From Candidatus Spongiisociaceae bacterium (lineage in GTDB: Bacteria > Actinomycetota > Acidimicrobiia > Spongiisociales > Spongiisociaceae), in contig CBDCOH010000002.1 of NCBI GenBank assembly GCA_965219685.1, positions 2,432,001 through 2,496,000 on the forward strand: a stretch of DNA of 64,000 nt. Reading direction: 5' to 3'. Position 1 is the stretch's first letter. Every line of letters begins with the position of its first letter. Below the pieces are notes generated by a model. It searched no databases, was not told where the DNA came from, and was given only the letters and a program-made list of their open reading frames with translations. Shown piece after piece: positions 11,831 through 59,459 of this stretch. The position numbers were made by a program, and so were the translations under genes.

Positions 11831-13225
11831 ATGGGGACGGGTGGGGTAGGCCATGGACAGCTGGAGCGAAGCGGCCGCGACTTCGCCCCGGTGCCTTACC
11901 CGACCCAGACCGAACGGCTCGCCGCACATGTGGTGGGGCTCCGTTACGACGACATCCCGCGACCCGCCGTGGACAAGATGAAGGACCACATCGTCCATCA
12001 CCTCGGACTGGCCCTGCGGGGTCTCGGCACCGGAGAAGGCCGCCAAGCCATCCGGATCGCCGAGTCCTTCCGCCATGGGGGATCTGCCACCATCGTCGGC
12101 AGGCGAACCCGGACGGCTCCCCTGGAGGCCACCTTCGCCAACACGACCCTCATGCGTTCCGACTTCCTCGACGATGTGCTCTTTCCCGCCGGTGTCCACG
12201 CCGCTCTCGTGACCCTCCCACCTGCGCTGGCCGTCGCAGAGGAACGCCATCGGTCCGGAAAGGAGTTGCTCACCGCCCTGGTCGCCGCCTACGACGTGAT
12301 CGGCAAGCTGGGAAACGCGGCCGGAATACGCTCGGCGAGGGCGCCGAGAAGACCGACAATTCCCTTCGGACCCTTCGGCGGCGCGGCGGCGGTCGCCCGC
12401 CTGCTCGGCTTGTCGAAACACCCGACCGCCCACGCCCTGGGCTACGCGGCGCACTCGGGCATGGGCCTCAGCGAGGGTGATTTCGTCACTCACTACTACA
12501 GCCTGGTGGCCAGGAACGGCCTGATGGCAGCGCTGGCGGCCGACCATGGGGGGCAAGCGGCCCTGGCGGTGATGGAGGGTCGGTTCGGCTTCTGGAACAC
12601 ATTCTTCACGGGAGTTCCCCCGACCCTGGACGACTCGCTCGCCACCTTGGGTAAGGAGTTCGAGATCATGAACGCCACGACCAAGCGTTACCCGGGTACG
12701 GGGCTGAATATCGTCCCGATCGAACTCACCACCCACTTGGTGGAGGACCATTCCCTGACCGTTGCGAATACCCGCTCGGTGACCGTGTTCCTGCCCGCCG
12801 AGCGGGAGAGCTTCGTCACGGGCCACATGCAGCCCCCCTTCGAAAGCGAAGCGGCGGCCCGCAGCTCGCTGGTTCTGGCCATCGCCACCATCCTCGCGAC
12901 CGGCCGGATCGACCCGGCGCTTGTCAAGCAGTACGCCCGTCCGGATCTGGTGGAACTCTGCAGCCGGATCCGCGTGGTCCTGGAGGAGGGCCATCCCATC
13001 CGCTACGCCCGGATCGAGATCGCCACCCGCGACGGACGCTCGCTAGCCGCCCAGGGACATGACCACTCCTTCGATCCGGCGGAGTGGCTCCGCTGGATCT
13101 CCATCGGCGGAACCGATGTCCTCGGACGCGATGCGCTCGCCGCGCTGGTGGAGACAATGGATCGCCTCGAAGACCTTGACGACGTAGCCGACTTGACAAC
13201 CTTGCTCCGACCTCCCGATAGTTGA
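11831..13225 (+). CDS. MmgE/PrpD family protein
   Basis: LRYDDIPRPAVDKMK, ATFANTTL...DFLDD...GVH, SGKELLTALVAAYDV, MEGRFGF, KRYPG; exact start uncertain. Confidence 0.85.
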   Translation: MGTGGVGHGQLERSGRDFAPVPYPTQTERLAAHVVGLRYDDIPRPAVDKMKDHIVHHLGLALRGLGTGEGRQAIRIAESFRHGGSATIVGRRTRTAPLEATFANTTLMRSDFLDDVLFPAGVHAALVTLPPALAVAEERHRSGKELLTALVAAYDVIGKLGNAAGIRSARAPRRPTIPFGPFGGAAAVARLLGLSKHPTAHALGYAAHSGMGLSEGDFVTHYYSLVARNGLMAALAADHGGQAALAVMEGRFGFWNTFFTGVPPTLDDSLATLGKEFEIMNATTKRYPGTGLNIVPIELTTHLVEDHSLTVANTRSVTVFLPAERESFVTGHMQPPFESEAAARSSLVLAIATILATGRIDPALVKQYARPDLVELCSRIRVVLEEGHPIRYARIEIATRDGRSLAAQGHDHSFDPAEWLRWISIGGTDVLGRDALAALVETMDRLEDLDDVADLTTLLRPPDS

Positions 13226-13251
13226 TAGATGATAGTTGATAATTGATAGTT
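13217..13251 (+). repeat. G/T-rich heptamer array (GATAGTT-type) x5
   Basis: GATAGTT GATAGAT GATAGTT GATAATT GATAGTT; contains the PrpD stop codon. Confidence 0.85.
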
Positions 13252-13305
13252 TCCGTTAGATCGGATCATTCACCATCCTCAATAGCAAGGCACTATCCAT
13301 CGATG

Positions 13306-13359
13306 AGCCACCAGCCATTAGCAAAACTCACAACTACTAACTAATAACTACCAACTATT
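13306..13359 (-). repeat. C/A-rich degenerate heptamer array (AGCCAYY x2, AACT-led x5)
   Basis: AGCCACC AGCCATT ... AACTCAC AACTACT AACTAAT AACTACC AACTATT; contains the racemase stop codon. Confidence 0.75.
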
Positions 13360-14082
13360 AAGTAGCTCCCGTCCGAACAGTGACTGATGGGTCGACGTCA
13401 CCAGGGAGTAGAGATCGAAGATGGGGAGGCCGGTCGCGCGCCGCATCGCGTTGCCCCAAGGAACGAAGTTCGTGCACTCGAGGACGATCGCGCCCACATC
13501 AGGATGCTCCTCGACCTGGCGGCGAGCCAGCGCCACCAGCTCTGCCTCCAGCACGGCGGTGTCGGCGACAACCGTCTGGTCGATGTACACCTGTGGGAAG
13601 ACGGCATCCCTCGGCATGGATGTGACGACCGTGTCGACTTCCCCCGGTTGCCAGCCCATGCCGACGAAGTGGCGGTCGGTGAGGTGCGGGCGTTCGGTCA
13701 GGATCCCGACCTTCCGTCCCGGCCCGACGAGCCGGCCCGCCAACGGGACCTGGAGCAGGGCGGAGGTGAGCATCGGGACGCCGACGCTCGCCTGCATCGC
13801 CCGGTGGAAGACCGATAGGAAACCACAGCTGGTGGTGATCGCCCTCACTCCCTTCGCCTCCAACTCTCTCGCGCCTTCGATGAAGGGGGCGAGCAGCGTC
13901 GGGTCGGGCTCCGAACCCATGATCCTGCTCGTGTCGGCCCCCTTCACGACCTTGTAGAGAACCGGGAACGGCCACGTCAGGGCGTTTCCCACGTCGCCGG
14001 GTGGTCTGGGACAGGTCGTGTCGAGCATGAGGATCCCGATGTCGTGGCCGTAAACGGTACGGCCGCCTTTCACTATCGCCAT
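13348..14082 (-). CDS. Asp/Glu/hydantoin racemase family protein (paralog 1)
   Basis: Two-Cys motifs ITTSCGF and LECTN; N-terminal GILMLDT..PR.PGDVGNA.TWPFPV; RBS AAGGAGG. Confidence 0.85.
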   Translation of the reverse strand: MAIVKGGRTVYGHDIGILMLDTTCPRPPGDVGNALTWPFPVLYKVVKGADTSRIMGSEPDPTLLAPFIEGARELEAKGVRAITTSCGFLSVFHRAMQASVGVPMLTSALLQVPLAGRLVGPGRKVGILTERPHLTDRHFVGMGWQPGEVDTVVTSMPRDAVFPQVYIDQTVVADTAVLEAELVALARRQVEEHPDVGAIVLECTNFVPWGNAMRRATGLPIFDLYSLVTSTHQSLFGRELLNSW

Positions 14083-14151
14083 CGCCCTCCTTCAGCCACG
14101 GGCGCCAGACCCCCACTCGGGAGCCCGAGACTATCAACCTGATTACGAACC

Positions 14152-14161
14152 CCGATATCAT
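14152..14161. promoter_or_regulatory. Operator variant CCGATATCAT between the divergent racemase and aconitase X genes
   Basis: 8/10 match to the palindrome, in the divergent intergenic region. Confidence 0.5.
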
Positions 14162-14198
14162 GATCCGAGTTCGAGTTTCGTCACCGGAACGGAGCGCG

Positions 14199-15476
14199 AT
14201 GAGGCTCACATACGAAGACCTCGAGATGCTGGACGGCAAGCAGGGAGAGGCCCGGCGCCGGGCGATGGAGGGACTCGTCCAGTTGGGCGCGGCCTTCGGG
14301 GCGGAAGACCTGGTGTCGATCGGGTACGCCCACGTGCATCCGGGCATGGCCATGTACGCCCAGGATGTGGAGTTGCTCGAGGAATTGGTGGATCTCGGCG
14401 GGCAGGTTGTGGTCCCGACCACGGCCAACGTCACCAACGTCGACACGGAGAACTGGAGGCAGACGGGAGCCCCCGAATCGCTGGCCCGGCTCCACATGCG
14501 GGGGGTACGAGCCCACAAGGCTCTCGGCTGCGTGAGCGCCATGACCTGTACACCCTATTGGGCCGGGCATTGGCCGACGTGGAACATGCACATGACCTCG
14601 ATCGAGTCCGGGGTCACGGTGTTCTGCAACTCGGTGCTCGGCGCCCGCTCGAACCGGGACGGTTTCTTCAGCGTCTACGCGGCATTGACCGGCCGCTATC
14701 CCCGCTTCGGCTACCACCTCGACGAGAACCGGGCGGGCACGCATCTGGTTACGGTGGAGACCCCCCTGGACAACACGACCGACTTCAGTTGCCTGGGCTA
14801 CCACCTGGGACCGCTGGTCGGGACCGGCGTACCGGTCTTCACCGGCTTCTCCAGGCGTCCCTCACTCGACGAACTGGACGCTTTGGGAGCGGGTCTCGCC
14901 ACAACCGGAGGCGTATCCATGTTCATCGTCCCCGGCATCACACCCCCGTACCAGTCGAAGAGCCAGGCCATGGCGGGCAATCGGGCTCCGGTGGAGATCC
15001 GCGTAGGGCCTCCCGACATCGACCGGGTATACGACTCCTTCTCCTCGTCTCCAGCCGGATCCCGGATCGACTTCGTCCATATCGGATGTCCCCATGCCTC
15101 CTTCCAGGAGATGAAGGAGTACACTGCGCTGCTCTCCGGACGGACCGTCCACCCCGACGTGGAACTGTGGATCACCACCAGCGGCGCCGTCAAGGCCCTG
15201 TGCGCACGGGAAGGATTGATCGACACGCTCACCGATGCAGGCGCCAAGGTCATAACCGACACCTGCCCGATGTCATGCCATTTCGCGCGGACAACCTCGC
15301 CGGATCCCGGGATCGTGCTTCCCGAGCCCCACATCCGCCGGATGGTCGTGGACTCCGCCAAACAGGCCAAGTACAGCCGCGACATGATCATGTGCGAGAC
15401 CCTCCTGGCAACGACCACCTCCGCAGTCGCGACCGCAATCTCCGGGCGGCTCGTGACAGGGAGGGCCCACCCGTGA
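14199..15476 (+). CDS. Aconitase X large (catalytic) subunit, DUF521
   Basis: MLDGKQGEARRRAM, MTCTPY, ES..FCNSVLGARSNR, AALTGRYP.FGYHLDENR, IGCPH, DTC; start at ATG 14199 after GGAG. Confidence 0.9.
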   Translation: MRLTYEDLEMLDGKQGEARRRAMEGLVQLGAAFGAEDLVSIGYAHVHPGMAMYAQDVELLEELVDLGGQVVVPTTANVTNVDTENWRQTGAPESLARLHMRGVRAHKALGCVSAMTCTPYWAGHWPTWNMHMTSIESGVTVFCNSVLGARSNRDGFFSVYAALTGRYPRFGYHLDENRAGTHLVTVETPLDNTTDFSCLGYHLGPLVGTGVPVFTGFSRRPSLDELDALGAGLATTGGVSMFIVPGITPPYQSKSQAMAGNRAPVEIRVGPPDIDRVYDSFSSSPAGSRIDFVHIGCPHASFQEMKEYTALLSGRTVHPDVELWITTSGAVKALCAREGLIDTLTDAGAKVITDTCPMSCHFARTTSPDPGIVLPEPHIRRMVVDSAKQAKYSRDMIMCETLLATTTSAVATAISGRLVTGRAHP

Positions 15477-17705: not shown

Positions 17706-17781
17706 GACCGGCGCTGGTGGGCCCTTGGCACGGCACCCTTTGTCCACCATCCTTGCACGCCGGTGCCGGCCGGAGGCCGGT

Positions 17782-18837: not shown

Positions 18838-19925
18838 GGTCGCAGCCGGGCAACCGGCCACCGGACGACCAGACTCTTCCGACCGTCGACGCCGGCGACC
18901 TGCGGCGGTTCGCGGCCGCGGTCCTGCAGGCCCAGGGAGTGGCGCCTGCGGACGCGGCCCTCGCTGCCGATGCCATGGTCTGGGCCGACCTCAGGGGAAG
19001 GTACGCTCACGGAACGAGCAGCAAGCTTCCCCAATGTGTATCCCGGATCCGGGCCGGTGGGACATCCACATCTGGCGAGTTGCCCTTCGTCTCGGAGACT
19101 GCTGCGACCTTCGTGCTCGACGGGCGCCACTCTTGGGGTCAGATCGCAGCTTCGAAGGCGATGATGGCGGCCGTGGAGAAGGCTCGGTCCGTTGGCGTGT
19201 CCGTCGGCGTCGTGCGCGACTGCAGTTCCGCAGCCGCGATGGGTTACTACCCCCTGCTGGCAGTGGCCGAGGGCATGATCGGCCTCGCCGTCACCAACGG
19301 ACCTCCCCTCATCGCTCCTTCCGGGGGTTCCACCAGACTGTTGGGAAACCAGGCCCACGCGATAGGCTGCCCGGCCAACCGCCACCATCCGATCGTGTTC
19401 GACGCGGCGACCACCGCCATGTCCACCTCCGAGATGGATCTCGTCCACGAGCGCGGCGAGCTACTCCCGGAAGGAGTCCTGTACACCGCCGACGGAACAC
19501 CGACCAGAGATCCCTCGCTCTGGGTTGACGGCCTCCTGGCCCCGGCGGGAGGTCACCGTGGCTACGGGTTGTCGCTGATGTTCGAGATTCTCACGGGTGT
19601 GCTGGCGGGAGGCGCGAGGCTCGCTCCTGATGTAGGGCATCCGTTCGACAGCCGGGAACCCCAGGGCGTATCCCTGTTCGTGGTGGCGATCGACCCCGAG
19701 CACTCGATCGGATACGGAGAGTTGACGCGGCGGGTCGACTCGCTGATCGACCGGCTGCACGCCTCTGGGACCGCCCCCGGCATCGAGAGGATCTACGTAC
19801 CCGGTGAACGGAGCTTCATCCTGGCCGAGAGGCGGGAACGGGACGGAATTCCGATGCCGGTGGAGCGGCTGGAGGCCCTCCGCCGGATCGGTTCGGAGTC
19901 GGGCCTGACGCTTGCTAGTTGGTAG
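18825..19925 (+). CDS. Ldh_2 family oxidoreductase 3
   Basis: ADLRGRYAHG, AVEKA, FDAATT, GGHRGYGL, IYVPGE; start at 18825 or 18834. Confidence 0.85.
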   Translation: MAVVRSQPGNRPPDDQTLPTVDAGDLRRFAAAVLQAQGVAPADAALAADAMVWADLRGRYAHGTSSKLPQCVSRIRAGGTSTSGELPFVSETAATFVLDGRHSWGQIAASKAMMAAVEKARSVGVSVGVVRDCSSAAAMGYYPLLAVAEGMIGLAVTNGPPLIAPSGGSTRLLGNQAHAIGCPANRHHPIVFDAATTAMSTSEMDLVHERGELLPEGVLYTADGTPTRDPSLWVDGLLAPAGGHRGYGLSLMFEILTGVLAGGARLAPDVGHPFDSREPQGVSLFVVAIDPEHSIGYGELTRRVDSLIDRLHASGTAPGIERIYVPGERSFILAERRERDGIPMPVERLEALRRIGSESGLTLASW

Positions 19926-19959
19926 TTTGTAGTAGTGCCCACTGACCACTGACCGCAAC
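19916..19959. repeat. Inward-facing short heptamer arrays: TAGT-led x3 and CCACTGA x2
   Basis: TAGTTGG TAGTTTG TAGTAGT (includes the stop codon), then CCACTGA CCACTGA CCGCAAC; lies between convergent genes. Confidence 0.65.
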
Positions 19960-24682: not shown

Positions 24683-27277
24683 ATGCCTAGACCTCTCATC
24701 ATCGTCGAGTCGGCGACCAAGGCACGCACGATCGCCGGCTATCTGGGGCGCGGATACCGTGTGGAGTCCTCCCAGGGCCACATCCGTGATCTACCCAACA
24801 ACGCCAAACAGATCCCGGCCAAGTTCAAGGACCAACGTTGGGCCAGGGACTGGGGCGTGAACGTGGATCGTGACTTCAAGCCCCTGTACGTCGTTCCGCC
24901 TGAGAGCCGCAAGACGGTCCAGACCCTCAAGCGCCTGGTCAAGGAGGCCTCCGAGTTGTACCTCGCAACTGACGAGGACCGAGAGGGCGAGGCGATCGCG
25001 TGGCACCTCAAGAAGGTGCTCAAACCAAACGTGCCGATGCACCGGATGGTGTTCCACGAGATAACCCGCGCGGCGATCCGAACAGCGCTCGAGAATCCGA
25101 GAGAAATCAACAGCGATCTGGTCGACGCCCAGGAAGCCCGCCGCACCCTAGACCGCCTGGTCGGCTACGGCCTGTCGCCCGTGCTCTGGAGGAAGGTGAA
25201 GCGCGGCCTGTCCGCGGGACGCGTGCAGAGCGTCGCGGTCAGGCTGATCGTGGAACGGGAGCGACGACGCATCGCCTTCCGCTCGGCGGGCTTCTGGAGC
25301 ATCGAGGGACTGTTCGCCACAGAACGTGGTGAGACGTTCACCGCCTCTCTCACAGCAATCGACGGGACGCGCCCGGCCGGGAGCAGGGACTTCAATGAAC
25401 GCGGCGAACTCACGACCTCGAAGGTCGTACGGCTCGACGAGACCCGCGCACGCGATGTCTCAGCCGGGATCGAAGGCTGCCATCTCGCGGTGCGGTCCGT
25501 CGTTGCCAAGCCGTACAGCAGGAATCCCTACGCCCCGTTCCGTACCTCGACACTCCAGCAGGAAGCGTCCCGGAAGCTGCGGTTCGCCGCGTCCAGGACG
25601 ATGAACGCCGCGCAGCGGTTGTACGAGCGCGGTCACATCACCTACATGCGTACAGACAGCACCAACCTCTCGGAAACGGCGCTGAAGACGGCCCGGGCGG
25701 AGATCCTCAAGCGCTACGGATCCCGGTACCTGGCCGCCAAGCCGCGGCGCTACGCCAACAAGGTCAAGAACGCCCAGGAGGCGCACGAGGCGATCCGCCC
25801 GGCCGGCGACTCGTGGCGAACACCCCAGCAGCTGTCGAAGCTCGTCAACGACCGGGACCAGCAACGCGTCTACCGCCTGATCTGGACCCGCACCCTGGCG
25901 TCGCAGATGGCCCCCGCTCGGGGCGAGAGCACCCGGGTCCGGCTCGGTGGGACGATCCAAGGAGGGACCGATGTGGAATTCGGGGCCACCGGCAGGACGG
26001 TCACCTTCGCAGGGTTTCTCCGGGTCTACGTGGAAGGGCAGGACGACCCCGACAGGGAAGTCGACGACCGCGAGCGCCATCTCCCGGCCTTGGCCGTCGA
26101 TGATCGGGTCCTGGCCCGGGATGTCACGGCGAAAGGGCGCCAGACGCAGCCCCCGCACCGTTTCACCGAGGCCTCGCTCATCAAGCAACTGGAGGACATG
26201 GGTATCGGCCGGCCCTCGACCTACGCCTCGATAATCGCAACGGTGATCGGGCGCGGCTACGTGTTCAAGAAGGGGAACGCCCTCATCCCCTCGATCACCG
26301 GGTTCGCCACCACCCAGCTGCTCGAACGCCACTTCGAGGACCTGGTTGACTTCGGCTTCACCGCACGGATGGAGGACGACCTCGACAAGATCGCCAGGGG
26401 TGAGACGGAGAAGGTTCCCTGGCTCCGACGCTTCTTCCACGGCAACGGGGCTCCGGGCCTGTACCGCCTGGTGTCGGGCGAGCATGTCGACGGCATCGAC
26501 CCGCGCCAGATCTTCCTTGATCTGGGGAAGGACGAGCAGGGCGAGCCGGTGATGGTACGGGTCGGCAGGTACGGTCCCTACGTCGCCAGGGGTGACGATC
26601 GGGCATCGGTGCCGGAGGACATCCCGCCCGACGAGTTGTCCGTGGAGCGGGCCGTGGAGATGTTGGAAGCGCCGCAGGGGGACAAGATCCTGGGCACGGA
26701 TCCCGACTCGGGTCTCACCGTGCTGGCTCGAATCGGTCGATACGGACCGTACGTGCAACTGGGCGAGGACGCGAAGGGAGCAGGAAAGCCCAAGCGTGCC
26801 TCCCTTCTCCGCAACATGGTCATCGATGAGTTGGCGCTTGACGACGCCCTGAAGCTGCTCTCCCTTCCCCGCCAGGTCGGCGCTCATCCGGAGACGGGCG
26901 AGATGATCGTGGCGGGTAACGGACGCTACGGCCCATATCTCAAGATGGGCAAGGCCTACCGGAACCTCGACAACCCGCAACGCCTGTTCGACATCACGCT
27001 CGGGGAGGCCGTCAAGGTGATGAACGCCCCCAAGCAGACCAGACGCCGGGGAGCCGCCCCCCCACTGAAGGAACTCGGGAAGGATCCGGTATCGGGAGGC
27101 ACGGTCCTACTCAGGACCGGACGCTACGGACCCTACGTGACCGACGGCGCCGTCAACGCCTCCGTGCGCGAGGATGCCATCCCGGACCTCAGCCTCGAAC
27201 AGGCCGCCGTCCTGCTGGCACGCCGGAGAGAGAAGCTCAAGGAGCAAGGCAAGTGGCCTCCCAAGAAGAGACGTTAG
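24683..27277 (+). CDS. topA: DNA topoisomerase I (actinobacterial type)
   Basis: IIVES, LATDEDREGE, SAGRVQS, ITYMRTDS, AQEAHEAIRP, GIGRPSTY and four C-terminal GRYGPY repeats. Confidence 0.97.
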   Translation: MPRPLIIVESATKARTIAGYLGRGYRVESSQGHIRDLPNNAKQIPAKFKDQRWARDWGVNVDRDFKPLYVVPPESRKTVQTLKRLVKEASELYLATDEDREGEAIAWHLKKVLKPNVPMHRMVFHEITRAAIRTALENPREINSDLVDAQEARRTLDRLVGYGLSPVLWRKVKRGLSAGRVQSVAVRLIVERERRRIAFRSAGFWSIEGLFATERGETFTASLTAIDGTRPAGSRDFNERGELTTSKVVRLDETRARDVSAGIEGCHLAVRSVVAKPYSRNPYAPFRTSTLQQEASRKLRFAASRTMNAAQRLYERGHITYMRTDSTNLSETALKTARAEILKRYGSRYLAAKPRRYANKVKNAQEAHEAIRPAGDSWRTPQQLSKLVNDRDQQRVYRLIWTRTLASQMAPARGESTRVRLGGTIQGGTDVEFGATGRTVTFAGFLRVYVEGQDDPDREVDDRERHLPALAVDDRVLARDVTAKGRQTQPPHRFTEASLIKQLEDMGIGRPSTYASIIATVIGRGYVFKKGNALIPSITGFATTQLLERHFEDLVDFGFTARMEDDLDKIARGETEKVPWLRRFFHGNGAPGLYRLVSGEHVDGIDPRQIFLDLGKDEQGEPVMVRVGRYGPYVARGDDRASVPEDIPPDELSVERAVEMLEAPQGDKILGTDPDSGLTVLARIGRYGPYVQLGEDAKGAGKPKRASLLRNMVIDELALDDALKLLSLPRQVGAHPETGEMIVAGNGRYGPYLKMGKAYRNLDNPQRLFDITLGEAVKVMNAPKQTRRRGAAPPLKELGKDPVSGGTVLLRTGRYGPYVTDGAVNASVREDAIPDLSLEQAAVLLARRREKLKEQGKWPPKKRR

Positions 27278-27308
27278 GTGTTTGGTATTAGGTGTTAGGT
27301 GTTGGGCG
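27274..27308 (+). repeat. G/T-rich heptamer array (TTAGGTG-type) x5
   Basis: TTAGGTG TTTGGTA TTAGGTG TTAGGTG TTGGGCG; begins at the topA stop codon. Confidence 0.8.
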
Positions 27309-27330: not shown

Positions 27331-27400
27331 TCACCATTCACCATTCACCATTCACCATTCACCATTCACCATTCACCACTCACCACTCACCACTCACCAC
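27331..27400 (-). repeat. Heptamer array (TCACCAT)6(TCACCAC)4
   Basis: Ten tandem units directly after the stop codon of 27403-28578. Confidence 0.95.
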
Positions 27401-27402
27401 TC

Positions 27403-43561: not shown

Positions 43562-43596
43562 CAACTAGTAACTAACAACTAGCAACCAACAACCAA
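43562..43596 (-). repeat. C/A-rich heptamer array (YAACYAR) x5
   Basis: CAACTAG TAACTAA CAACTAG CAACCAA CAACCAA, just downstream of the DUF2237 stop codon. Confidence 0.8.
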
Positions 43597-43989: not shown

Positions 43990-44050
43990 GGTGGCTGGGT
44001 GGCTGGGTGGCTGGGTGGCTGGTGGATGGTGGATGGTGAATAGTGAATGG
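43990..44050 (+). repeat. G/T-rich array grading from 8-mer to 7-mer
   Basis: (GGTGGCTG)3 GGTGGCT GGTGGAT GGTGGAT GGTGAAT AGTGAAT GG. Confidence 0.85.
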
Positions 44051-44063
44051 CGGAGCCACGCAC

Positions 44064-44140
44064 CACCACTCACCACTCACCACTCACCACTCACCACTCA
44101 CCACTCACCACTCACCACTCACCACTCACCACTCACCACT
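44064..44140 (-). repeat. Perfect heptamer array (CACCACT)11
   Basis: Eleven perfect units, overlapping the stop codon of 44139-44501. Confidence 0.95.
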
Positions 44141-49008: not shown

Positions 49009-49014
49009 GTAGGA

Positions 49015-49043: not shown

Positions 49044-49164
49044 GGCTAGGGACCCCAAATATTTCGCGGCTCACCGATTCTTTTCGCGATTGTGGAACGT
49101 CGGCCCGATGCGACAGTTCGCGGAACCCGTCTTTCGGGATAAGCCGCAAGGGAGCACTGGCTTC

Positions 49165-49186
49165 TGTCACGAGTGACCCGTATAGT
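49165..49186 (+). promoter_or_regulatory. PafBC/RecA-NDp-like DNA-damage promoter TGTCAC-N10-TATAGT (leaderless)
   Basis: Same geometry as the mycobacterial TGTCGG-N10-TANNNT motif; ATG follows 7 nt after the -10. Confidence 0.65.
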
Positions 49187-49193
49187 TACAGCC

Positions 49194-50042
49194 ATGTCAT
49201 TAGCCACCAGGACCGATCAGTTACTCGACCGAACTCGAGCGGAGGCCTGCGGCCACGCCGTTGGCGAGACTACCCCTGAACCGAGACCCTCGACACTCGA
49301 GACCCTGTCACCGAGCCGTGCCGCCGATTTCAAGCAATGCCCGCGACTGTTCCGCTTCCGCAGCATCGACCGCATTCCGGAGACCCCGTCCACGTACCAG
49401 GCGCGGGGAACCGCGGCGCATCTGGCTCTCGAGCGATTGTTCGACCTTCCAGCAGCGCAACGTACCGCCGGCCGCCTGTTCGACCTGTTTCGAGAAGCCT
49501 GGACGAGCCTTCGCACGGAGACCGAGTACTCGGGACTGTTCGCGACCCTGGAGGAGGAGCGGGCCTGGGGTATCGAGAGCCTGGGGGTGATCGCCAACTA
49601 CCTGACCCTCGAGGACCCGGTATCGATCAGCCCGCTGGACAGCGAACTCGAGATGTCGGAAGAGGTCGGCGACATAATCATCCGCGGGATCCTCGACCGC
49701 CTAGACGAGCGGCCGGACGGCCACCTCGTGATAACCGACTACAAGACCGGCTCCGCTCCCCCCGAACGCTACGCTCTGACGGCTTTCTTCGCTCTCAAGA
49801 TCTACGCCTTGCTGGTCAGGAGCCGGTTCGGAAGGACGCCGGCGGAGATCCGCCTCATGTACCTCGGCAACTCCACGGTCTACTCGATCCCGGTCAGCGA
49901 CCGGATGCTGGACGGTATGGAACGGCAAATCCTGGCTCTGGCCACAGCGATCAGGCGCGCCATCTCCCGGTACGACTTCCCCCCCAGACCATCGGTCCTG
50001 TGCGGTTGGTGCTCGTTCCAGGACATCTGCCCGGCGTGGTGA
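49194..50042 (+). CDS. RecB-family PD-(D/E)XK exonuclease with 4Fe-4S staple
   Basis: LSPSRAADFKQCP, GTAAH, RGILDRLD, DYKTG, CGWCSFQDICP. Confidence 0.88.
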   Translation: MSLATRTDQLLDRTRAEACGHAVGETTPEPRPSTLETLSPSRAADFKQCPRLFRFRSIDRIPETPSTYQARGTAAHLALERLFDLPAAQRTAGRLFDLFREAWTSLRTETEYSGLFATLEEERAWGIESLGVIANYLTLEDPVSISPLDSELEMSEEVGDIIIRGILDRLDERPDGHLVITDYKTGSAPPERYALTAFFALKIYALLVRSRFGRTPAEIRLMYLGNSTVYSIPVSDRMLDGMERQILALATAIRRAISRYDFPPRPSVLCGWCSFQDICPAW

Positions 50043-50067
50043 ATGGTGAGTGGTGAATAGTGAATGG
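50037..50067 (+). repeat. G/T-rich heptamer array (TGGTGAA-type) x4
   Basis: TGGTGAA TGGTGAG TGGTGAA TAGTGAA TGG; contains the nuclease stop codon. Confidence 0.85.
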
Positions 50068-50122
50068 AAAGGTATTCTAGCGTACTAAATCGTTACTATA
50101 AGATCTTATTAGGCGTCCACCA

Positions 50123-50159
50123 CACCAGCTCACCACTCACCACTCACCACTCACCAGCT
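50123..50159 (-). repeat. C/A-rich array CACCAGCT(CACCACT)3CACCAGCT
   Basis: Directly abuts the gdh stop codon; faces the 50037 array across an AT-rich spacer of ~55 bp. Confidence 0.85.
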
Positions 50160-53233: not shown

Positions 53234-56200
53234 ATGGGCGACGGTACGAGGACGGTGGCAGAGACGAGGCTCGCGGCTGGTCGACCAGACGTCCGGGAGC
53301 CGGACGCCGGCATCGTTGAGCGAATCCTCTCCCCGACGGAGTGGCCCGAGGCTGTGGCCACAACCGAAGGTCCGCAGTTGGTGGTGGCAGGCCCGGGCGC
53401 CGGCAAGACCGAGTTTCTGGTTCGGCGCGTCTCTCACCTCGTCGAAGAGCGCGGCCTGCCCGGTTCCCACATCCTCGCCCTCACGTTCTCGAGGCGATCT
53501 GCTGCGGACCTGCGCGAGCGCATCGGCTCGGCGACCGGCGGGGCCTGGGGAGCCGTAGCCGCTTCCACCTTCCACTCATTCGGTCATCGCCTTCTGGAAC
53601 TCTATGGATCCGACGCCTTCGGTTGGACCGAGGTGCCCTCGGTGCTCACCGGGCCCGAACAGGTCGACCTGGTCTCCGAACTGCTGTCAGCCGAACCTCC
53701 CGACCAGTGGCACCCGGCTCTGCGCAAACTTCTGGGCAGCAGGACCCTTGCCACCGAGGTAACCGAGTTCATCCTCAGAGCCCGGGAAGGAATGCTGACC
53801 ACGTCCGAGCTGCTGAGGCGAAGCGCCGAGCGCGACTACTGGGCGGCCCTGCCGGCCTTCGTGGCCAGCTACGACGCGGCGCTCGCACGGATCAACCGCC
53901 TCGACTACGGAACCCTGCTGACCAGGGCGATCATGGTCCTCGAGACCGAGGAGGCGCTGGAGACGATTCGGGAACAGTACCGGTACCTGCTCGTCGATGA
54001 ATACCAGGACACCACCCCGGTCCAGGCGACCCTCCTCAGAGTCCTGTCAAGGAGAAACCGCAACCTCACGGTGGCCGCCGATCCCTACCAGTCCATCTAC
54101 GCGTTCCGGGGAGCGGCTCTATCCAACGTCACCGGGTTCGTCGACGACCTCCCCCGGTCCGGATCCGAAACACTGCACAAGTGGATACTGGGAACCTCAT
54201 TCCGGCTGCCGCGAGAGATCCTCGAAGCCGCTGAACGACTCACCACCGGTGTATCCCTTCCGGGCGCCACCGGGCATGTCCAGCCGGCGCCCCATCCTGG
54301 TCTCGTGGAGATACGCGTCTTCGACCAGGAGTCGGAGGAGTCGGACTGGATCGCCGCGGAGGCTGGTCGCCTCCATCTCGAACAGGAGATCCCCTACCGG
54401 AGGATGGCCGTGCTGGTGCGGACCAAGCGGCGGCTGCTGAAGGAACTCTCCCGTGCCCTCGAACGGAGGGCGATCCCGCACGACCGTCCGGACAGGCGGT
54501 TGGTGGACCATCCTGCTGCCCGGATGGTCTTCGACCTGGCGCGAGCGGCCCGGGCGCCCGACCGGCGAGCCACAGGCCCGCCCGTCCGCCGCCTGTTGCT
54601 CGGACCCCTGTTCGACCTCGGCATCGGAAGGTTTCGCCAGATGGAGAGGGACATGGAGTCGGCGGACACGACCTGGCCCGCGATGATCCGCGGTGAGGTG
54701 GAAGGTGGGGAGCCTCTGGCAGCCCTCCTGGAGGATCCGGCCTGGACATGCCGTCGCGCGATCGACGCCTTCTGGCACGTGTGGACCCGGCTTCCCCAGT
54801 TCGGTCCGATGGTGACCGACCCGGACCGGGACGAGTTCCGCGCCGTGTGGACCAGCCTCGCGCAGACCCTCGTGAGCCTGGAGGAACGCAGTCCGGCCAC
54901 CACCCTCGCCGACTACATACGGATGGTCGAGTCGGACGACTTCGAGGCCAGCCCGCTCCTCAGCTACCGGAACCCCGCCGAGGACAGGATGTCCCTCACG
55001 ACCATGCACCAGGCCAAGGGTCTCGAGTTCGACATCGTGTTCATCGCCGACGCAGTGGAGGGAGTGCTACCCGATCTGCGGCGCAACCAGTCACTGCTGC
55101 AGACCGAACTGTTGGATCTCGAGAGTACCGGGGGACACGGCTCGGCAACCCGGCGCCTCGAGGAGGAGACCCGCCTCATGTACACGGCGATGACGCGGGC
55201 GCGCAGCCGCGTGGTGGTCACCGCCACCAGCGCCGGCTTCGACGAGGAGCACCGGCGCCCCAGCCGGTTCCTCGAGGCCGTAGCCGGGGACCGGCTGGTC
55301 ATCTCCACTGCCACGCCTCGCCGGGCGCGGCCCCTGACCATCAGGGAAACCGAGTCATGGCTCCGCACGGTCCTCGCCGATCCGGCCGAACCCGGCCATC
55401 GCCGCCTCGCCGCTGCCCGCGTGCTCGCCGCCGGCGCCGGCTTCGGGCTGCGAGAGCCCGCCCTCTACGCCCCGATACACCGTCCCGGCGCTGACACGGG
55501 TCTCGTGCAGTCCGGACGGCGCCTGTCTCCCTCCGACGCAGTCACCTACGACGCCTGTCCCAGGCAGTTCGCCTTGCAGAGGGTGTTGAAGGTGGACCGT
55601 CCCCCCGGCCCCTATCTCACATTCGGGATCCTCATCCACCAGGTGCTGGAGATGGTCGAGAGGCTCGCAAGCGAGGATGATCGCCGCTCCACCCTCGAAG
55701 AAGCGCTCGGGCGGTTGGACGAACTCTTCGGTGACTTCGACTTCGGGAGCGGGTCCATCAACGATGCCTGGCTGCGAAGGGCTCGCATGCTCCTGACCCG
55801 GTTGTACGAAGGCTGGCCCAATCCCGAAGCTGTCCCCGTGCTGCTCGAACACCCGGTAGGCGTGGAACTGGGCGGCATGGCCTGGCGGGGGCGCATCGAC
55901 CGCATAGAGCGTGACGCCGACGGCGCTCTTCGTATCGTCGACTACAAGACCGCCAAGACACCACCGCCATCCCGCGAGGCGGCCACGTCATTGCAACTCG
56001 GCTTCTACTCGGTGGCGGCTGGGGAGAACGAAACCGTGGAGATCCACGGACCGGTTACGGAGGCCGAGTTCTGGTACCCGCTGGCCGACTCGCCAACGCG
56101 CAGGACCCTCCGCTTCAACCGTTCCGCTCTCGAGACAACCCGGCGCCGCCTGGCGGACATCGCCCGGCGGATCGCCCGCGACGAGTGGGCCCCCAGGCCG

Positions 56201-56278
56201 GGCGGCGCCTGCGACCGGTGCCATGTCAGGCTGGTGTGCCCGGCCTGGCCGGAAGGGCAAGAGGCGTACCGGCGATGA
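53234..56278 (+). CDS. adnA: AdnA-like UvrD/SF1 helicase-nuclease
   Basis: AGPGAGKT, VDEYQD, DPYQSIYAFRGA, HQAKGLEF, YTAMTRA and a C-terminal nuclease (CP...RGRIDRIE..DYKT...CDRC...CP). Confidence 0.85.
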   Translation: MGDGTRTVAETRLAAGRPDVREPDAGIVERILSPTEWPEAVATTEGPQLVVAGPGAGKTEFLVRRVSHLVEERGLPGSHILALTFSRRSAADLRERIGSATGGAWGAVAASTFHSFGHRLLELYGSDAFGWTEVPSVLTGPEQVDLVSELLSAEPPDQWHPALRKLLGSRTLATEVTEFILRAREGMLTTSELLRRSAERDYWAALPAFVASYDAALARINRLDYGTLLTRAIMVLETEEALETIREQYRYLLVDEYQDTTPVQATLLRVLSRRNRNLTVAADPYQSIYAFRGAALSNVTGFVDDLPRSGSETLHKWILGTSFRLPREILEAAERLTTGVSLPGATGHVQPAPHPGLVEIRVFDQESEESDWIAAEAGRLHLEQEIPYRRMAVLVRTKRRLLKELSRALERRAIPHDRPDRRLVDHPAARMVFDLARAARAPDRRATGPPVRRLLLGPLFDLGIGRFRQMERDMESADTTWPAMIRGEVEGGEPLAALLEDPAWTCRRAIDAFWHVWTRLPQFGPMVTDPDRDEFRAVWTSLAQTLVSLEERSPATTLADYIRMVESDDFEASPLLSYRNPAEDRMSLTTMHQAKGLEFDIVFIADAVEGVLPDLRRNQSLLQTELLDLESTGGHGSATRRLEEETRLMYTAMTRARSRVVVTATSAGFDEEHRRPSRFLEAVAGDRLVISTATPRRARPLTIRETESWLRTVLADPAEPGHRRLAAARVLAAGAGFGLREPALYAPIHRPGADTGLVQSGRRLSPSDAVTYDACPRQFALQRVLKVDRPPGPYLTFGILIHQVLEMVERLASEDDRRSTLEEALGRLDELFGDFDFGSGSINDAWLRRARMLLTRLYEGWPNPEAVPVLLEHPVGVELGGMAWRGRIDRIERDADGALRIVDYKTAKTPPPSREAATSLQLGFYSVAAGENETVEIHGPVTEAEFWYPLADSPTRRTLRFNRSALETTRRRLADIARRIARDEWAPRPGGACDRCHVRLVCPAWPEGQEAYRR

Positions 56279-59200
56279 AGTTCGTTCCCTCCGCCGAGCA
56301 GTCGGCCATCATCGACCATGGACCGGAGCCGCTGCGGGTCGTCGCCGGCGCCGGGACCGGGAAGACCACCACGCTCGCCTACCGGGTGGTCCGACTGGAG
56401 GAACGCTTCGGCATCCTGCCGGCCGAGGTCCTTGGCGTAACGTTCACCAACAAGGCCGCCGGCGAACTGGCCCAGCGGATCCGCGAGGCCCGCTCGCGCC
56501 CCTTCACTCCGGGCCACGAGGTGGACGTGTTCACGTATCACGGTTTCGCCGGACACCTGCTGGGCACCTACGGCGCCCTGGTCGGATTCGAACGCGACAC
56601 CCGCATCATCACGCCCACCCGCACGCGCCAGATCCTGCGCGAATGCCTCCCCGGCGCCCGATTCGAGGCGGTGGACGTCACCCACACCTCCGGAGTGGTG
56701 GACCGCCTGGTCAGCCTGTCGAGCGAACTTGCCGATAACCTGATGCGACCTGCCGATCTGCTGGAGTTCCCCCCCGAGGAAGAGGTGGAGACACGCCGCG
56801 CAGAACTCGCCACGGCCCTCGTGCGATTCGAGAGGGCCAAGACCGAGTTGGGCGTCCGGGACTACGGTGACCTGATCCGTCTGGCGGTCGAACTGGTACG
56901 GGCGCATCCCGAGGTGGCGGAGCGGATCCGCAACCGTTACAGGTGCGTACTGCTCGACGAGTACCAGGACACCAATCCGGCCCAGAGGGAACTGTTCGCC
57001 GGCTTGTTCGGACGGCATGGGGCGGTCACGGCCGTCGGCGACACCGACCAGACCATCTACGAGTGGAGAGGCGCCAGCCCGGCCAACTTCGAAGGTTTCC
57101 CCGACCGGTTCCGCCGCGCGGACGGCTCCCGGGCGCGGACGCTCCGCCTGTCCTTCAACCGCCGCTCCGGGCAGCGGATCCTGGACGTGGCCAACCGTAT
57201 CCGGACCAGGATCTCCGCGCCCGGTAGGTCCGGGAGGCTGATGGCGCTGCCGGGCACGCCAACGGGAGAAGTTCACACCGCCTGGTACGCGGATGCGCGG
57301 CGCGAGTCCGAGGAGATCGCCCGTGAGCTGCACCGCCTCCACGAGACCGGGATGGAATGGTCGGAGATGGCAGTGCTGTTCCGCCGGAACCGCGACATGG
57401 AACTGGTGAGGTTGGCCCTGGAGGAACACGATGTGCCGGTGCAGGTAGCCGATCTCGGTGGGCTGATGCAGGTGCCGGAGATAGTCGAACTCCATGCGTG
57501 GCTCAGACTGCTGGCAGACCCCGAGGACAGCCCGGCTCTGGTCCGCATCCTGCTCGGCTCCCGGTTCCGGCTAGGAATGTCAGGCTTGTTACCCCTATCC
57601 CGATGGGTGCTCGAGCGCACCAGAACCGCCGGCGACGGCGGGGCCGTCCACACGCTTGTCGAAGCCCTCGAACACCTGGACGCCATGAACCTGGATGAGA
57701 GCACGCGTGAGTCACTCCGCGGTTTCCACCTCCTCTACCGTGCCCTCCTGGCCGAGTCGCAGGGCACGAGCCTCTCGGAGTTGACCCGCATGATCCTGTC
57801 GAGAACCGGCGCCTGGCAGGAGATTGACTCCATGCCGAGCCCCTCGGACATCTCCGCGCGGCTCAACGTGTACCGGTTTCTCGATTTCACCGAGCACTGG
57901 AATCCGCTCAAGGGCAGATCGTCCCTGGAAGCCTTTCTGGAACATCTGGAATTGCTGCAAGAGGATCCAGGCGAGCAGCTAGACACGGCAAGGATCGGCG
58001 ACGGCGACGCCGTGACCCTCATGACCGTCCACCGGGCGAAAGGACTCGAGTGGCGCGCGGTGTTCCTGCCCGCTTTGTTCCGTGGGAACTTCCCCGCCGG
58101 TCCCCGGCGGCTTCTGGACCCGTCGCGGTTCGAGTTCACCGTCCCGGCAAGGCTCCGGATCGATGCCGAGTACCGGACCAACCTGGATCCCTCGCTCGAC
58201 GCCGAGACACGGCGAGCATGGCTGCGCGCCCGGCACTACGACCAGGAGTGGCGGCTCGCCTATGTGGCCTGCACCAGAGCCAAGGAAATCCTGTACCTGA
58301 GCGGGGCGCACTGGTACGGGGTACCCCAGACGCGCAAGAACCCTTCAAAACCCGGCGAGCTTCTGGGGCTTGCCCGCCAGGTGGACGGGGTGGTGACCGC
58401 GGATGACTGGGCTTCCGAACCCCCGCCCCGACCCGAAGACCTCAGGTTCCCCCTCTCCCAACCCGGTCCTGACCCGGTGCTGGGGATGAGCTGGGAAGAG
58501 GCCCTCCACATCGTATCGGAGGATCAGGGCTGGGCGGCTCGCCGCGCCCACGACCTGGGCATCCAAGACCTATACGATGGGGCTGTGGACGAGTTCGAGT
58601 TGACCCTTCTTGATCTCCCGGAGCCCGCCGGTACCGATCCCCCGACGGACCGGTCCGCGGTGAGCGTCACGGGCCTGGTCACCTACGCGACCTGCCCCAA
58701 GCGCTACTACTGGACGGAGGTCGACCGGCTTCCCAGGCGACCGGGTCCATCCGCTCGCCGCGGCACCCGCCTTCACCGGAGGATCGAACTGCACAACCGG
58801 GGCATGGTCCCGTTCGACGACCTCGACCATGACCTGTACGACCGGTCGCCCGGCGAGGACTCTGCAGGCGACGGTGTCGCGGAGGGTCGCTGGGAGGCTT
58901 TCCTCGGATCGCCGTACGCGAACCGGACCCCCGTCCACGTGGAAGTTCCGTTCGAGATCAGCCTGGCGCCTGATGTCCGCATCCGGGGAAGGGTGGATGC
59001 GGTCTACCCGAGTGGTGATCACGGCTGGGAGATCGTCGATTTCAAATCCGGACGCCGTCCCCGTCCTGCCCCTGACGACATCCAACTGCAGGCGTACGCC
59101 GTAGCAGCCCGGGACGGCGGGTTCGGCGCGAAGGCTCCCGAGTCCCTGAGCGTCTCCTTCGTCTACCTGGGCGGCGGGTTGGATGTCATCGGCCAGGACG

Positions 59201-59364
59201 TGGACGAATCCTGGCTGCAGGCGGCGACGGACCGCATCCTCGAACTAGTAGGGGACATCCGCGCCGAGCAGTTCGATCCGGCGCCCTCCCCGGCCTGCCG
59301 CTCATGCGACTTTCGCCACGTCTGCCCCGAAGGCAAGGACTGGCTGGGGAGTGGTGAGTGGTGA
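56275..59364 (+). CDS. adnB: AdnB-like UvrD/SF1 helicase-nuclease
   Basis: AGAGTGKT, LDEYQD, GDTDQTIYEWRGA, TVHRAKGLEW, YVACTRA and a nuclease (RGRVDAV..DFKSG..QLQAY); ATGA-coupled to adnA. Confidence 0.87.
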   Translation: MKFVPSAEQSAIIDHGPEPLRVVAGAGTGKTTTLAYRVVRLEERFGILPAEVLGVTFTNKAAGELAQRIREARSRPFTPGHEVDVFTYHGFAGHLLGTYGALVGFERDTRIITPTRTRQILRECLPGARFEAVDVTHTSGVVDRLVSLSSELADNLMRPADLLEFPPEEEVETRRAELATALVRFERAKTELGVRDYGDLIRLAVELVRAHPEVAERIRNRYRCVLLDEYQDTNPAQRELFAGLFGRHGAVTAVGDTDQTIYEWRGASPANFEGFPDRFRRADGSRARTLRLSFNRRSGQRILDVANRIRTRISAPGRSGRLMALPGTPTGEVHTAWYADARRESEEIARELHRLHETGMEWSEMAVLFRRNRDMELVRLALEEHDVPVQVADLGGLMQVPEIVELHAWLRLLADPEDSPALVRILLGSRFRLGMSGLLPLSRWVLERTRTAGDGGAVHTLVEALEHLDAMNLDESTRESLRGFHLLYRALLAESQGTSLSELTRMILSRTGAWQEIDSMPSPSDISARLNVYRFLDFTEHWNPLKGRSSLEAFLEHLELLQEDPGEQLDTARIGDGDAVTLMTVHRAKGLEWRAVFLPALFRGNFPAGPRRLLDPSRFEFTVPARLRIDAEYRTNLDPSLDAETRRAWLRARHYDQEWRLAYVACTRAKEILYLSGAHWYGVPQTRKNPSKPGELLGLARQVDGVVTADDWASEPPPRPEDLRFPLSQPGPDPVLGMSWEEALHIVSEDQGWAARRAHDLGIQDLYDGAVDEFELTLLDLPEPAGTDPPTDRSAVSVTGLVTYATCPKRYYWTEVDRLPRRPGPSARRGTRLHRRIELHNRGMVPFDDLDHDLYDRSPGEDSAGDGVAEGRWEAFLGSPYANRTPVHVEVPFEISLAPDVRIRGRVDAVYPSGDHGWEIVDFKSGRRPRPAPDDIQLQAYAVAARDGGFGAKAPESLSVSFVYLGGGLDVIGQDVDESWLQAATDRILELVGDIRAEQFDPAPSPACRSCDFRHVCPEGKDWLGSGEW

Positions 59365-59432
59365 ATGGTGAATGGTGAATGGTGAATGGTGAATGGTGAA
59401 TGGTGAATGGTGAATGGTGAATGGTGAATGGT
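59352..59432 (+). repeat. Heptamer array TGGTGAG(TGGTGAA)10
   Basis: Supplies the last codons and the stop codon of adnB. Confidence 0.95.
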
Positions 59433-59441
59433 TGTCCGTTG

Positions 59442-59459
59442 GCCACAAGCCACAAGCAA
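59442..59459 (-). repeat. Short C/A-rich array (GCCACAA)2
   Basis: GCCACAA GCCACAA GCAA downstream of the dtd stop codon, facing the 59352 array. Confidence 0.5.

Follow-up and report, generated by a model that had tools for sequence, protein, structure and literature searches.

Tandem heptamer arrays with a C-poor sense strand at gene ends of a Candidatus Spongiisociaceae chromosome

The stretch of DNA analysed here, referred to as the window, comprises 64,000 nucleotides of a Candidatus Spongiisociaceae bacterium (assembly GCA_965219685.1, contig CBDCOH010000002.1, positions 2,432,001 to 2,496,000). It has a GC content of 66%, with about 33% C, and encodes core functions only: MmgE/PrpD, AcnX, three Ldh_2 paralogues, holB, tmk, topA, a complete nuo operon, two acyl-CoA ligases, a PD-(D/E)XK nuclease, gdh, AdnA/AdnB, dtd and a GPAT-type acyltransferase. 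With topA, the nuo operon, AdnAB and gdh, the window is ordinary core chromosome. At seven sites the intergenic DNA is occupied by short tandem arrays of G/T-rich heptamers, 13 in all. Six of these sites are junctions (J1 to J6) in which a left and a right array face each other across a spacer, and the seventh is a single array (Table 1). Nearly all of the arrays are anchored at a stop codon and run outward from it with a sense strand that is almost free of cytosine. All array counts for the source genome are drawn from this one window.

The arrays were located by Tandem Repeats Finder (TRF) and by an independent period scan. The seven sites hold 18 of the 48 TRF rows, among them all 14 rows of period 7. 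The independent scan returned seven strong period-7 arrays where 0.27 were expected from 30 Markov-2 simulations, and no more than one strong array for any other period from 3 to 12. The motif TAG-N4-TAG-N4-TAG has 5 matches in the window against 0.01 expected, and GGTG-N3-GGTG-N3-GGTG has 31 against 0.07. An earlier note on this DNA, made from its letters, had listed six junctions with period-7 arrays; all six were recovered by TRF, and the seventh site is new to the list. Copy number ranges from 2.3 to 11.6 and the longest array measures 88 nt, with very unequal arms at J3 and J6. Three of the arrays are marginal, namely the two arms of J2 (3.1 and 2.3 copies) and J6 right (2.3 copies). Purity as scored by TRF falls from 100% over the 11 copies of J4 right to 76-86% in others, and J3 right, J4 left and J6 left are built from homogeneous sub-blocks of variant units. 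The three spacers that had been called AT-rich are so only relative to the window, with GC contents of 47% (J1), 52% (J3) and 36% (J5) against 66%. Searches of the spacers and outer flanks with blastn-short against the window and 80 loci from other genomes returned nothing in common except the heptamers themselves.

Two of the long arrays have a further property. Within 59352-59432 and 27331-27372, three TGGTGAA units form a six-codon mini-open reading frame (mini-ORF), ATG GTG AAT GGT GAA TGG TGA, and the next ATG directly follows its TGA, such that the long arrays read as chains of back-to-back mini-ORFs.

Table 1. Heptamer arrays and selected spacers in the window (positions counted from its first letter; units are given on the strand indicated)
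Feature	Position	Strand	Description
J1 left	13217..13251	+	(GATAGTT)x5; covers last codons and TGA stop (13223-13225) of MmgE/PrpD-family gene 11831-13225
J1 spacer	13252..13331	.	80 nt; no match elsewhere in the window or 80 loci
J1 right	13332..13361	-	(AGTAGTT/AGTTGGT)x4.3; covers N-S-W codons and TAG stop (13348-13350) of racemase-family gene 13348-14082
J2 left	19912..19933	+	(TTGGTAG)x3.1; gives A-S-W-TAG, stop 19923-19925, of third Ldh_2 paralogue 18804-19925
J2 right	19939..19954	-	(TCAGTGG)x2.3; 10 nt past TAG stop of trypsin-like gene 19965-20663; no stop trinucleotide
J3 left	27273..27303	+	(GTTAGGT)x4.4; first unit holds TAG stop of topA 24683-27277
J3 right	27331..27402	-	(ATGGTGA)x6 then (GTGGTGA)x4; directly after TAG stop (27403-27405) of gene 27403-28578, final gene of the nuo block
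J3 right, TRF span	27331-27399
Seventh site	43562..43596	-	(TTGGTTG/TTAGTTG)x4.6, CAACTAA-type; 6 nt after TGA stop of DUF2237 gene 43603-43977; no partner arm
J4 left	43990..44054	+	(GGTGGCTG)x4, period 8, then (GGTGGAT/GGTGAAT)x~5; 12 nt upstream of DUF2237 start codon 43975-43977 (- strand)
J4 right	44064..44140	-	(AGTGGTG)x11, 100% pure; starts at TAG stop (44139-44141) of hypothetical gene (hyp120) 44139-44501
J5 left	50037..50067	+	(TGGTGAA)x4.4; first unit is native W codon and TGA stop (50040-50042) of PD-(D/E)XK nuclease gene 49173-50042
J5 spacer	50068..50122	.	55 nt; unique
J5 right	50123..50159	-	(AGTGGTG)x4.7; directly behind native TAG stop (50158-50160) of gdh 50158-51456
J6 left	59345..59432	+	(AGTGGTG)x2 then (AATGGTG)x~10; encodes S-G-E-W-TGA, stop 59362-59364, of AdnB 56185-59364
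J6 left, TRF span	59352-59432
J6 right	59442..59457	-	(TTGTGGC)x2.3; 13 nt past TAA stop of dtd 59471-59926; no stop trinucleotide

Five of the junctions (J1, J2, J3, J5 and J6) lie between convergent genes, and J4 lies between two co-directional genes of the minus strand, hyp120 (44139-44501) and then the DUF2237 gene (43603-43977). Twelve of the 13 arrays start on a stop codon or 0-14 nt from one, and in all 12 the C-poor strand is the sense strand of the gene that ends there (binomial p=0.0005). The thirteenth, J4 left, abuts a gene start, as had been noted from the sequence, with the DUF2237 start codon 12 nt away. Every one of the 13 lies within 14 nt of an ORF boundary with its G-rich strand pointing away from the ORF. 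A constant polarity, with the G/T strand running from each flank into the gap, had likewise been described, and the outward strands of the 13 arrays pool to G 251, T 185, A 104 and C 15, the last being 2.7% of 555 nt.

The distribution of arrays among gene ends follows the arrangement of the genes. Of the 18 gene ends whose non-coding 3' flank measures 30 nt or more, 12 have an array; these include all 10 ends that face a convergent gap of more than 30 nt, as opposed to 2 of the 8 that lie before a co-directional gene (Fisher p=0.0015). Three further convergent junctions, whose gaps are 28 nt or less or whose genes overlap, have no arrays, and none were seen in the divergent gaps of the window. 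In approximate counts made with a crude gene caller based on third-codon-position GC (GC3), arrays of period 7, 8 or 14 overlap 13 of 29 free 3' flanks in the window, compared with 5 of 147 flanks from 30 Acidimicrobiia loci and 4 of 163 flanks from other high-GC loci. The flanks free of arrays have, on the same approximate basis, G>C skews of only -0.02 to -0.04 (n=16, 142 and 159 flanks). The idea that the arrays merely amplify a G>C skew common to all sequence behind stop codons is thereby rejected; the polarity thus belongs to the arrays and not to gene ends generally. An array goes with the gene end beside it and not with the junction. The inward-facing appearance of the junctions arises, for the most part, because two convergent genes each carry their own G/T-rich array on the sense strand.

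Fusion of the arrays to stop codons, with gene ends rewritten in the process, had also been reported, and the endings DS*, NSW*, ASW*, PAW* and SGEW* are all present. In 7 of the 12 stop-associated cases the array overlaps the ORF end and supplies the stop. The PrpD-family protein ends in D-S-*, the racemase-family protein in N-S-W-*, the Ldh_2 paralogue in A-S-W-* and AdnB in S-G-E-W-*; the topA TAG lies in the first unit of its array, the nuclease stop is read as TGG-TGA, and the TAG of hyp120 has 2 nt in common with its array. AdnB ends ...DWLG|SGEW*, where SGEW* is read from two AGTGGTG units, and its orthologues have unrelated tails after a conserved C..G..W(L) motif. Orthologues of the nuclease continue with variable tails beyond a conserved ICPAW, and the array of the window begins at the codon for that W. 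Accordingly, PAW* needs a correction: its stop does come from the array, but PAW itself is native to the nuclease and only the tail after W is missing. These orthologue comparisons show that dispensable C-terminal codons of AdnB and the nuclease have indeed been overwritten. At gdh and hyp120, the native end is kept and the array stands directly behind the stop.

A second consequence for the reading of gene ends is the early closure of all three frames. Behind stop codons that bear arrays, the distance to closure of every frame has a median of 25 nt (n=12); behind stops that lack them, the median is 470 nt (n=11; Mann-Whitney p=0.0003). Of the 12 array-bearing ends, 10 are closed within 49 nt. 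The earlier proposal that units containing TGA or TAG put stops in every frame therefore stands as a description of the set, except at J2 right and J6 right, whose units hold no stop trinucleotide. The suggestion that the arrays serve as read-through insulators survives in the form of this measurable consequence.

At least seven distinct consensus units occur among the 13 arrays, and most fall into two families. Units of the TAGTT type make up J1 left, J1 right, J2 left, J3 left and the single array at 43562-43596, and those of the GGTGA type make up J2 right, J3 right, both arms of J4 and J5, and J6 left; J6 right is an outlier. Both families are combined at J2 and again at J3. The mean distance between units is 2.33 mismatches within junctions and 2.18 between them. 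The two arms of a junction are thus no more alike than arms of different junctions, the arrays act as properties of single gene ends, and concerted evolution from arm to arm, as by quasi-palindrome correction, is ruled out.

Comparison with relatives shows array turnover at the same junction. In a contig scan of genomes with gdh as query, the nearest relatives are sponge-associated Acidimicrobiia: a metagenome-assembled genome (MAG) of Candidatus Spongiisocius variivorans (L001; 84% identity) and a Ca. Spongiisociaceae chromosome (L068; 81%), followed by other Acidimicrobiia MAGs at about 70%. The convergent gdh and nuclease genes that flank J5 in the window are conserved as a pair in 11 Acidimicrobiia loci, and arrays lie between them in three places only. 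In the window TGGTGAA faces AGTGGTG. L001 has (TAGTTGG)x5.6 fused to the gdh TAG together with a decayed partner, and in locus L003 the unit opposite (CGCGATA)x4.3 is its exact reverse complement. In the other loci the gap measures about 8-180 nt and holds no period-7 array, and GC-rich inverted repeats were read there by eye in some relatives. Elsewhere in L001, short unexpanded G/T-rich stretches lie past the hyp120 and DUF2237 stops, and a small GGTGGC/GCCACC hairpin stands where the window has the 11-copy J4 array. Presence thus extends to 4 of 4 orthologous gene ends of L001, with differences in unit and length. Over the 21 kb of L068 no period-7 G/T array occurs.

It had been proposed that alignment of orthologous junctions might reveal extra genes between the arrays. 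At the gdh and nuclease junction, gene order is kept in the 11 loci; L068 does carry an additional 6.3-kb island exactly there (11264-17600 of that locus), but no arrays border it. The island has a GC content of 42-62% and contains three large minus-strand ORFs of 766, 501 and 791 amino acids, of which only the last has a Pfam match, a weak one to matrixin.

Arrays of like kind also occur in the independent assemblies L001, L002, L003 and L012, and three loci show arrangements of their own. Three times in 16 kb of L003, at 9296-9360, 11333-11383 and 13782-13831, a heptamer array stands behind a GC-rich hairpin (GGGCC..CTCGCTTCGC..GGCCC), with units that differ; by its sequence, this triplet looks like a dispersed module of the repetitive extragenic palindromic (REP) kind. 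L002 holds copies, 93% identical, of an 89-nt flank with a G/T-rich array at 8620-8715 and 9000-9088. At 14178-14256 of L018 there is an inverted pair of opposite polarity, whose left arm is C-rich, (AGTCCCA)x4.3, and whose right arm is G-rich, (TCGGGTC)x4.3, in AT-rich non-coding DNA away from stop codons. Array-rewritten C-termini and the turnover of junctions among related species matter for the annotation of gene ends in genomes such as these.

The explanation that best accommodates these observations, and to which an even chance is given, is that the arrays are stop-anchored heptamer microsatellites of individual gene ends, expanded by slippage into unconstrained sequence, oriented by the stop codon, and de facto three-frame stop pads and, where the arms match, hairpins. 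Pure blocks of 10-11 copies beside decayed ones suggest that the arrays would lengthen and shorten through replication slippage; pure blocks, decayed neighbours and variant sub-blocks are the expected picture of birth, expansion and decay. Such arrays would invade every base not defended by selection, dispensable C-terminal codons included. Polarity would be fixed by a filter, in that only the orientation with TGA, TAG or TAA could fit on a stop without extending the protein. None of these three trinucleotides contains C, so that a stop-codon filter yields a C-poor sense strand.

As a matter of sequence, the tail of the transcript closes all three reading frames within about 25 nt and offers none of the cytosines needed by Rho and by actinobacterial RNase E. 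Rho loads on C-rich, G-poor RNA, and its rut tract is an unstructured stretch that precedes the stop point and measures roughly 60-80 nt. Mycobacterial RNase E is described as cutting directly 5' of cytidines (PMC10641625). An opposing read-through transcript, by comparison, would meet a G-free, C-rich tract; the complements of J3 right, J4 right and J6 left provide such tracts of 72, 77 and 88 nt, the remaining arrays being much shorter, and at J4 and J5 the C-rich tract is sequestered in a predicted hairpin. Where the two arms are of the same family (J1, J4 and J5), a long hairpin would form. Taken together, these properties probably turn the arrays into insulators of gene ends, at junctions that have no canonical terminators, insofar as this may be read from sequence properties.

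Several points weigh against this explanation. J4 left lies beside a start codon and has no stop to belong to; it is the sole array not explained as the 3' flank array of its own gene, and needs a second cause, such as hairpin partnership. J2 right and J6 right carry no stop trinucleotide, so the stop-codon filter cannot be general, and the GGGAATC unit of Xanthomonas, read directly, also lacks one, which indicates that the filter is not the whole story. The units are moreover not random: 21 of the 78 unit pairs differ by one base or fewer with rotation allowed, against 4.6 expected for random heptamers of the same composition, a count reached in 1 of 2000 simulations, and the main L001 unit, TAGTTGG, is identical to the J2 left unit of the window at a different locus (chance 3.1%). 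Random local slippage alone predicts neither the clustering nor the shared unit, nor the repeated modules of L003 and L002, and non-random units point to a sequence-selective factor, a template or a spreading mechanism. The explanation gives no reason for a period of 7. Every functional statement in it derives from sequence properties and is correspondingly conditional. Lastly, the sister locus L068 and most Acidimicrobiia loci have no arrays, which makes any function dispensable.

A first alternative, an unlikely one, is selection for binding sites or 3'-untranslated region (3'-UTR) elements. Here a lineage-specific factor would read periodic G/U-rich heptamers in RNA or single-stranded DNA, or the tails would evade Rho and RNase E while their complement loads Rho on antisense read-in. 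Two unit families beyond chance, common to L001 at non-orthologous loci, fit such a reading, as do the retention of presence, though not of sequence, at the four L001 orthologous ends, the 2.7% C of the sense strand, and the arrays at all 10 ends facing convergent gaps. The cytidine preference of mycobacterial RNase E noted above is also in its favour, and G-free tracts of 69-88 nt (the complements of J3 right, J4 right and J6 left) suit the size and composition of a Rho loading site, although both behaviours are carried over from mycobacteria by analogy and may differ here. HutP sites consist of at least three NAG triplets at NAG-N4 spacing. The AGTGGTG arrays give GAG-N4 and TGGTGAA gives GAA-N4; accordingly, a HutP-like reading accommodates the TAGTT family and AGTGGTG but not TGGTGAA, the most abundant unit, and is kept as a lead that suits some of the arrays. 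The 54 window proteins scanned against Pfam included no HutP, TRAP or similar candidate RNA-binding family. Copy numbers from 2.3 to 11.6, the very unequal arms of J3 and J6, and the absence of arrays from L068 and most relatives also sit poorly with a selected site.

Somewhat less probable is an origin from bidirectional terminator hairpins, in which both arms of an ancestral inverted repeat were lengthened by heptamer duplication and the hairpin halts transcription both ways. Arm-to-arm hairpins are predicted at three of the six junctions, with stems that consist of the repeats and contain periodic mismatches. That of J4 is the most stable of the set (-71 and -82 kcal/mol, z about -7), J5 follows with z of -6.1 and -7.4, and both fold on either strand (z -6.1 to -7.4); J1 is moderate (z -2.8 and -3.6). 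The small hairpin at the L001 orthologue of J4, with G/T-rich sequence before it, speaks for this view, and the array of L003 that faces its exact reverse complement and the GC-rich inverted repeats of some relatives point the same way. Against this, there is no significant arm pairing at J2 (z -0.4 and -1.5), J3 (z -1.8 and -0.8) or J6 (z -0.5, minus strand), arms are no more alike within junctions than between them, and the 43562 array is single. No U-tracts occur at the junctions. Canonical hairpin-plus-U terminators are found at none of them, and their counts over the window are at shuffle level (4 vs 6.4 and 10 vs 6.6).

A bolder reading, also judged rather unlikely, joins several of these elements. 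According to it, a sequence-selective process, and not random slippage, would write C-free arrays where translation ends, as a standard gene-end signal of the lineage that replaces terminators. The tail would be invisible to Rho and RNase E and stop ribosomes in all frames, and its complement, a G-free, C-rich tract, would load Rho onto polymerases that enter the gene from the far side. Were this so, the geometry shared with the unrelated units of Xanthomonas and Nostoc would imply a general, undescribed rule for the placement of heptamers at ORF borders. Arrays that are a working gene-end signal of a lineage without canonical terminators would constitute a new solution to the insulation of transcription units.

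Dispersed elements resembling REPs, bacterial interspersed mosaic elements (BIMEs) or miniature inverted-repeat transposable elements (MITEs) are an improbable source. On this account, a small element would have been spread by recombination or by a REP-associated tyrosine transposase (RAYT) of the IS200 type, landing at gene 3' ends. Unit families do recur across several loci and species, the modules repeated in L003 and L002 have the look of such elements, and the placement at 3' ends in inverted pairs recalls REP doublets. Within the window, however, only the heptamers are common to the sites, the spacers and outer flanks being unique; a MITE-like shared spacer or flank was sought in the blastn-short comparison and set aside. 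The units are tandem and not palindromic, there is no transposase gene among the 54 window proteins, and the unit family at orthologous sites of L001 is a different one, more in keeping with local turnover than with inherited insertions.

The origin proposed in the earlier note, telomere-like healing of broken 3' ends followed by fusion, or else marks of cassette insertion and excision, has very little probability left. It has in its favour that at all six junctions each flank has its G/T strand directed 5'->3' into the gap, the arm on the start side included, that the arms are mutually independent, that gene tails are trimmed to conserved residues, that spacers are unique and of lower GC, and that the L068 island is low-GC foreign DNA at the gdh and nuclease junction. 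At least two unit families, with variant sub-blocks within single arrays, are not what a fixed template would produce, however, and gene order across the core genes is syntenic in the 11 Acidimicrobiia loci. The blocks between junctions are ordinary operons in divergent pairs (nuo, topA, AdnAB), and not cassettes. A search for reverse transcriptase or primase-polymerase genes had been suggested; none of these, and no integrase or transposase, is present among the 54 window proteins, nor was a telomerase-like gene seen in the window. The L068 island lacks flanking arrays, the 43562 array lacks a partner arm, and arrays at 12 of 18 free gene ends would demand an implausible number of healed breaks.

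Quadruplex-forming regulatory repeats, as proposed for the heptamers of Xanthomonas and Nostoc, are equally hard to credit. The geometry agrees with that described for those repeats (PMC4692102), and a two-tetrad (GG) quadruplex is possible in 6 of the 13 arrays, but the other 7 fail even the GG motif, four tracts of G3 or more occur in none, and units of the TAGTT family (GATAGTT, AGTAGTT, TTAGTTG) have isolated G or at most GG. An assembly artefact, finally, to which the copy numbers of short tandem repeats are prone, is the least credible of all, as the arrays are no longer than 88 nt, have unique flanks, are in frame with gene ends, and have counterparts in the four independent assemblies named above, in L001 at orthologous gene ends.

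Several other features of the window merit description. At 16632-19925, three tandem Ldh_2 (malate/L-lactate dehydrogenase) paralogues adjoin AcnX and two Asp/Glu racemase-family genes, a group that may serve the catabolism of hydroxyproline or a related compound. In the nuo operon, subunits appear to be fused: a 669-aa protein (38636-40645) combines domains of the NuoE type (2Fe-2S thioredoxin-like) and the NuoF type (51K), and in a 562-aa protein (40646-42334) the NuoD (49 kDa) domain is confined to residues 292-562, which suggests a NuoC-D fusion. Between the acyl-CoA ligase and nuclease genes lie 710 nt (48463-49172) with no convincing ORF and no Rfam match, the longest ORF being without a Pfam match; across the whole window, Rfam gave no match at gathering score. 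Of this gap, only a hairpin-like segment of 53 nt, at about 48591-48643, is kept in the orthologous L001 gap (81%). An RNA tied to the arrays was considered here and set aside, with just this 53-nt hairpin conserved in L001.

The arrays may be compared with several known systems. Enterobacterial REPs and BIMEs are extragenic, abundant, and situated at gene 3' ends and in convergent gaps, often as inverted pairs, and roles in mRNA 3'-end protection, termination and translation near the stop codon have been proposed for REPs. REPs are, however, imperfect palindromes of 20-40 nt linked to RAYT transposases; no palindromic unit of that size is common to the loci here and none was seen in the window, which also encodes no RAYT (IS200/IS605-like) transposase among its 54 scanned proteins; the lack of a shared palindromic unit sets the arrays apart from REPINs as well. 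Intrinsic terminators without a U-tract occur as an actinobacterial type. The arrays resemble intrinsic terminators in their position after transcription units and in the hairpins of J1, J4 and J5, readable from both strands, and differ in that U-tracts are lacking, half of the junctions have no arm pairing, and the stems are repeats with periodic mismatches. With telomeric repeats and their head-to-head interstitial fusions they share T/G-rich units of 6-8 nt and a G-strand directed 5'->3' toward the end or gap, whereas the units here vary between and within arrays and the sites are internal, between intact syntenic core genes. Integron attC cassettes differ in that no integrase is encoded here and the blocks are divergent pairs of core operons.

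The kinship with known heptameric repeats that had been suggested, with the short tandemly repeated repetitive (STRR) sequences and others, is apt. TAACTGA repeats of Beggiatoaceae, cyanobacteria and Bacteroidetes lie mainly a few nt upstream of start codons (PMC4679880), and Chloroflexus has a heptamer tandem repeat, (GATAGRA)n (PMC6749651). STRR, TAACTGA and GATAGRA are, like the arrays here, genome-specific intergenic tandem heptamers, and the units of the latter two, read directly, also hold stop trinucleotides. They differ in hosts, which belong to other phyla, and in that the passages on them report no inverted pairing; TAACTGA differs further in its start-codon placement (PMC4679880), as opposed to the stop codons here. 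Full-text searches returned no paper on heptamer arrays at gene ends in Acidimicrobiia or Actinomycetota.

The closest parallel is found in Xanthomonas and Nostoc. Rehm et al. 2015 (PMC4692102) describe two repeats, GGGAATC of Xanthomonas and GGGGAYT of Nostoc, that occur genome-wide in non-coding DNA as arrays of 2-26 copies, with 70-75 inverted 'convergent' pairs per genome and few between divergent ORFs. The 5' side of the G-rich strand is almost always nearest the ORF, whichever way the ORF is oriented, and may overlap the stop codon; position is conserved between related species, length and sequence vary, and no link to mobile elements is reported (PMC4692102). The heptamers are interpreted there as quadruplex formers whose functional role is said to await elucidation (PMC4692102). 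The window shares the over-represented 7-nt tandem unit, the location at ORF ends, the G-rich 5' side toward the nearest ORF and the stop overlap, and its six inverted pairs and one single array likewise avoid divergent gaps as far as seen. It differs in having at least two unit families and an outlier instead of a single dominant unit with G3 or longer tracts, in units that are nearly C-free and mostly hold stop trinucleotides, in its high-GC Acidimicrobiia host, and in an apparent density that is much higher, at 13 arrays in 64 kb. The finding belongs, therefore, to the poorly understood class of heptameric intergenic repeats of Xanthomonas, Nostoc and other bacteria. Heptamer repeats are an over-represented class of long microsatellites in many bacteria, and the window adds a discriminating case to them: with no G3 tracts, the quadruplex rationale does not apply, yet the full geometry is present, which weakens the quadruplex account of that shared geometry and moves attention to the absence of C and the translation stop.

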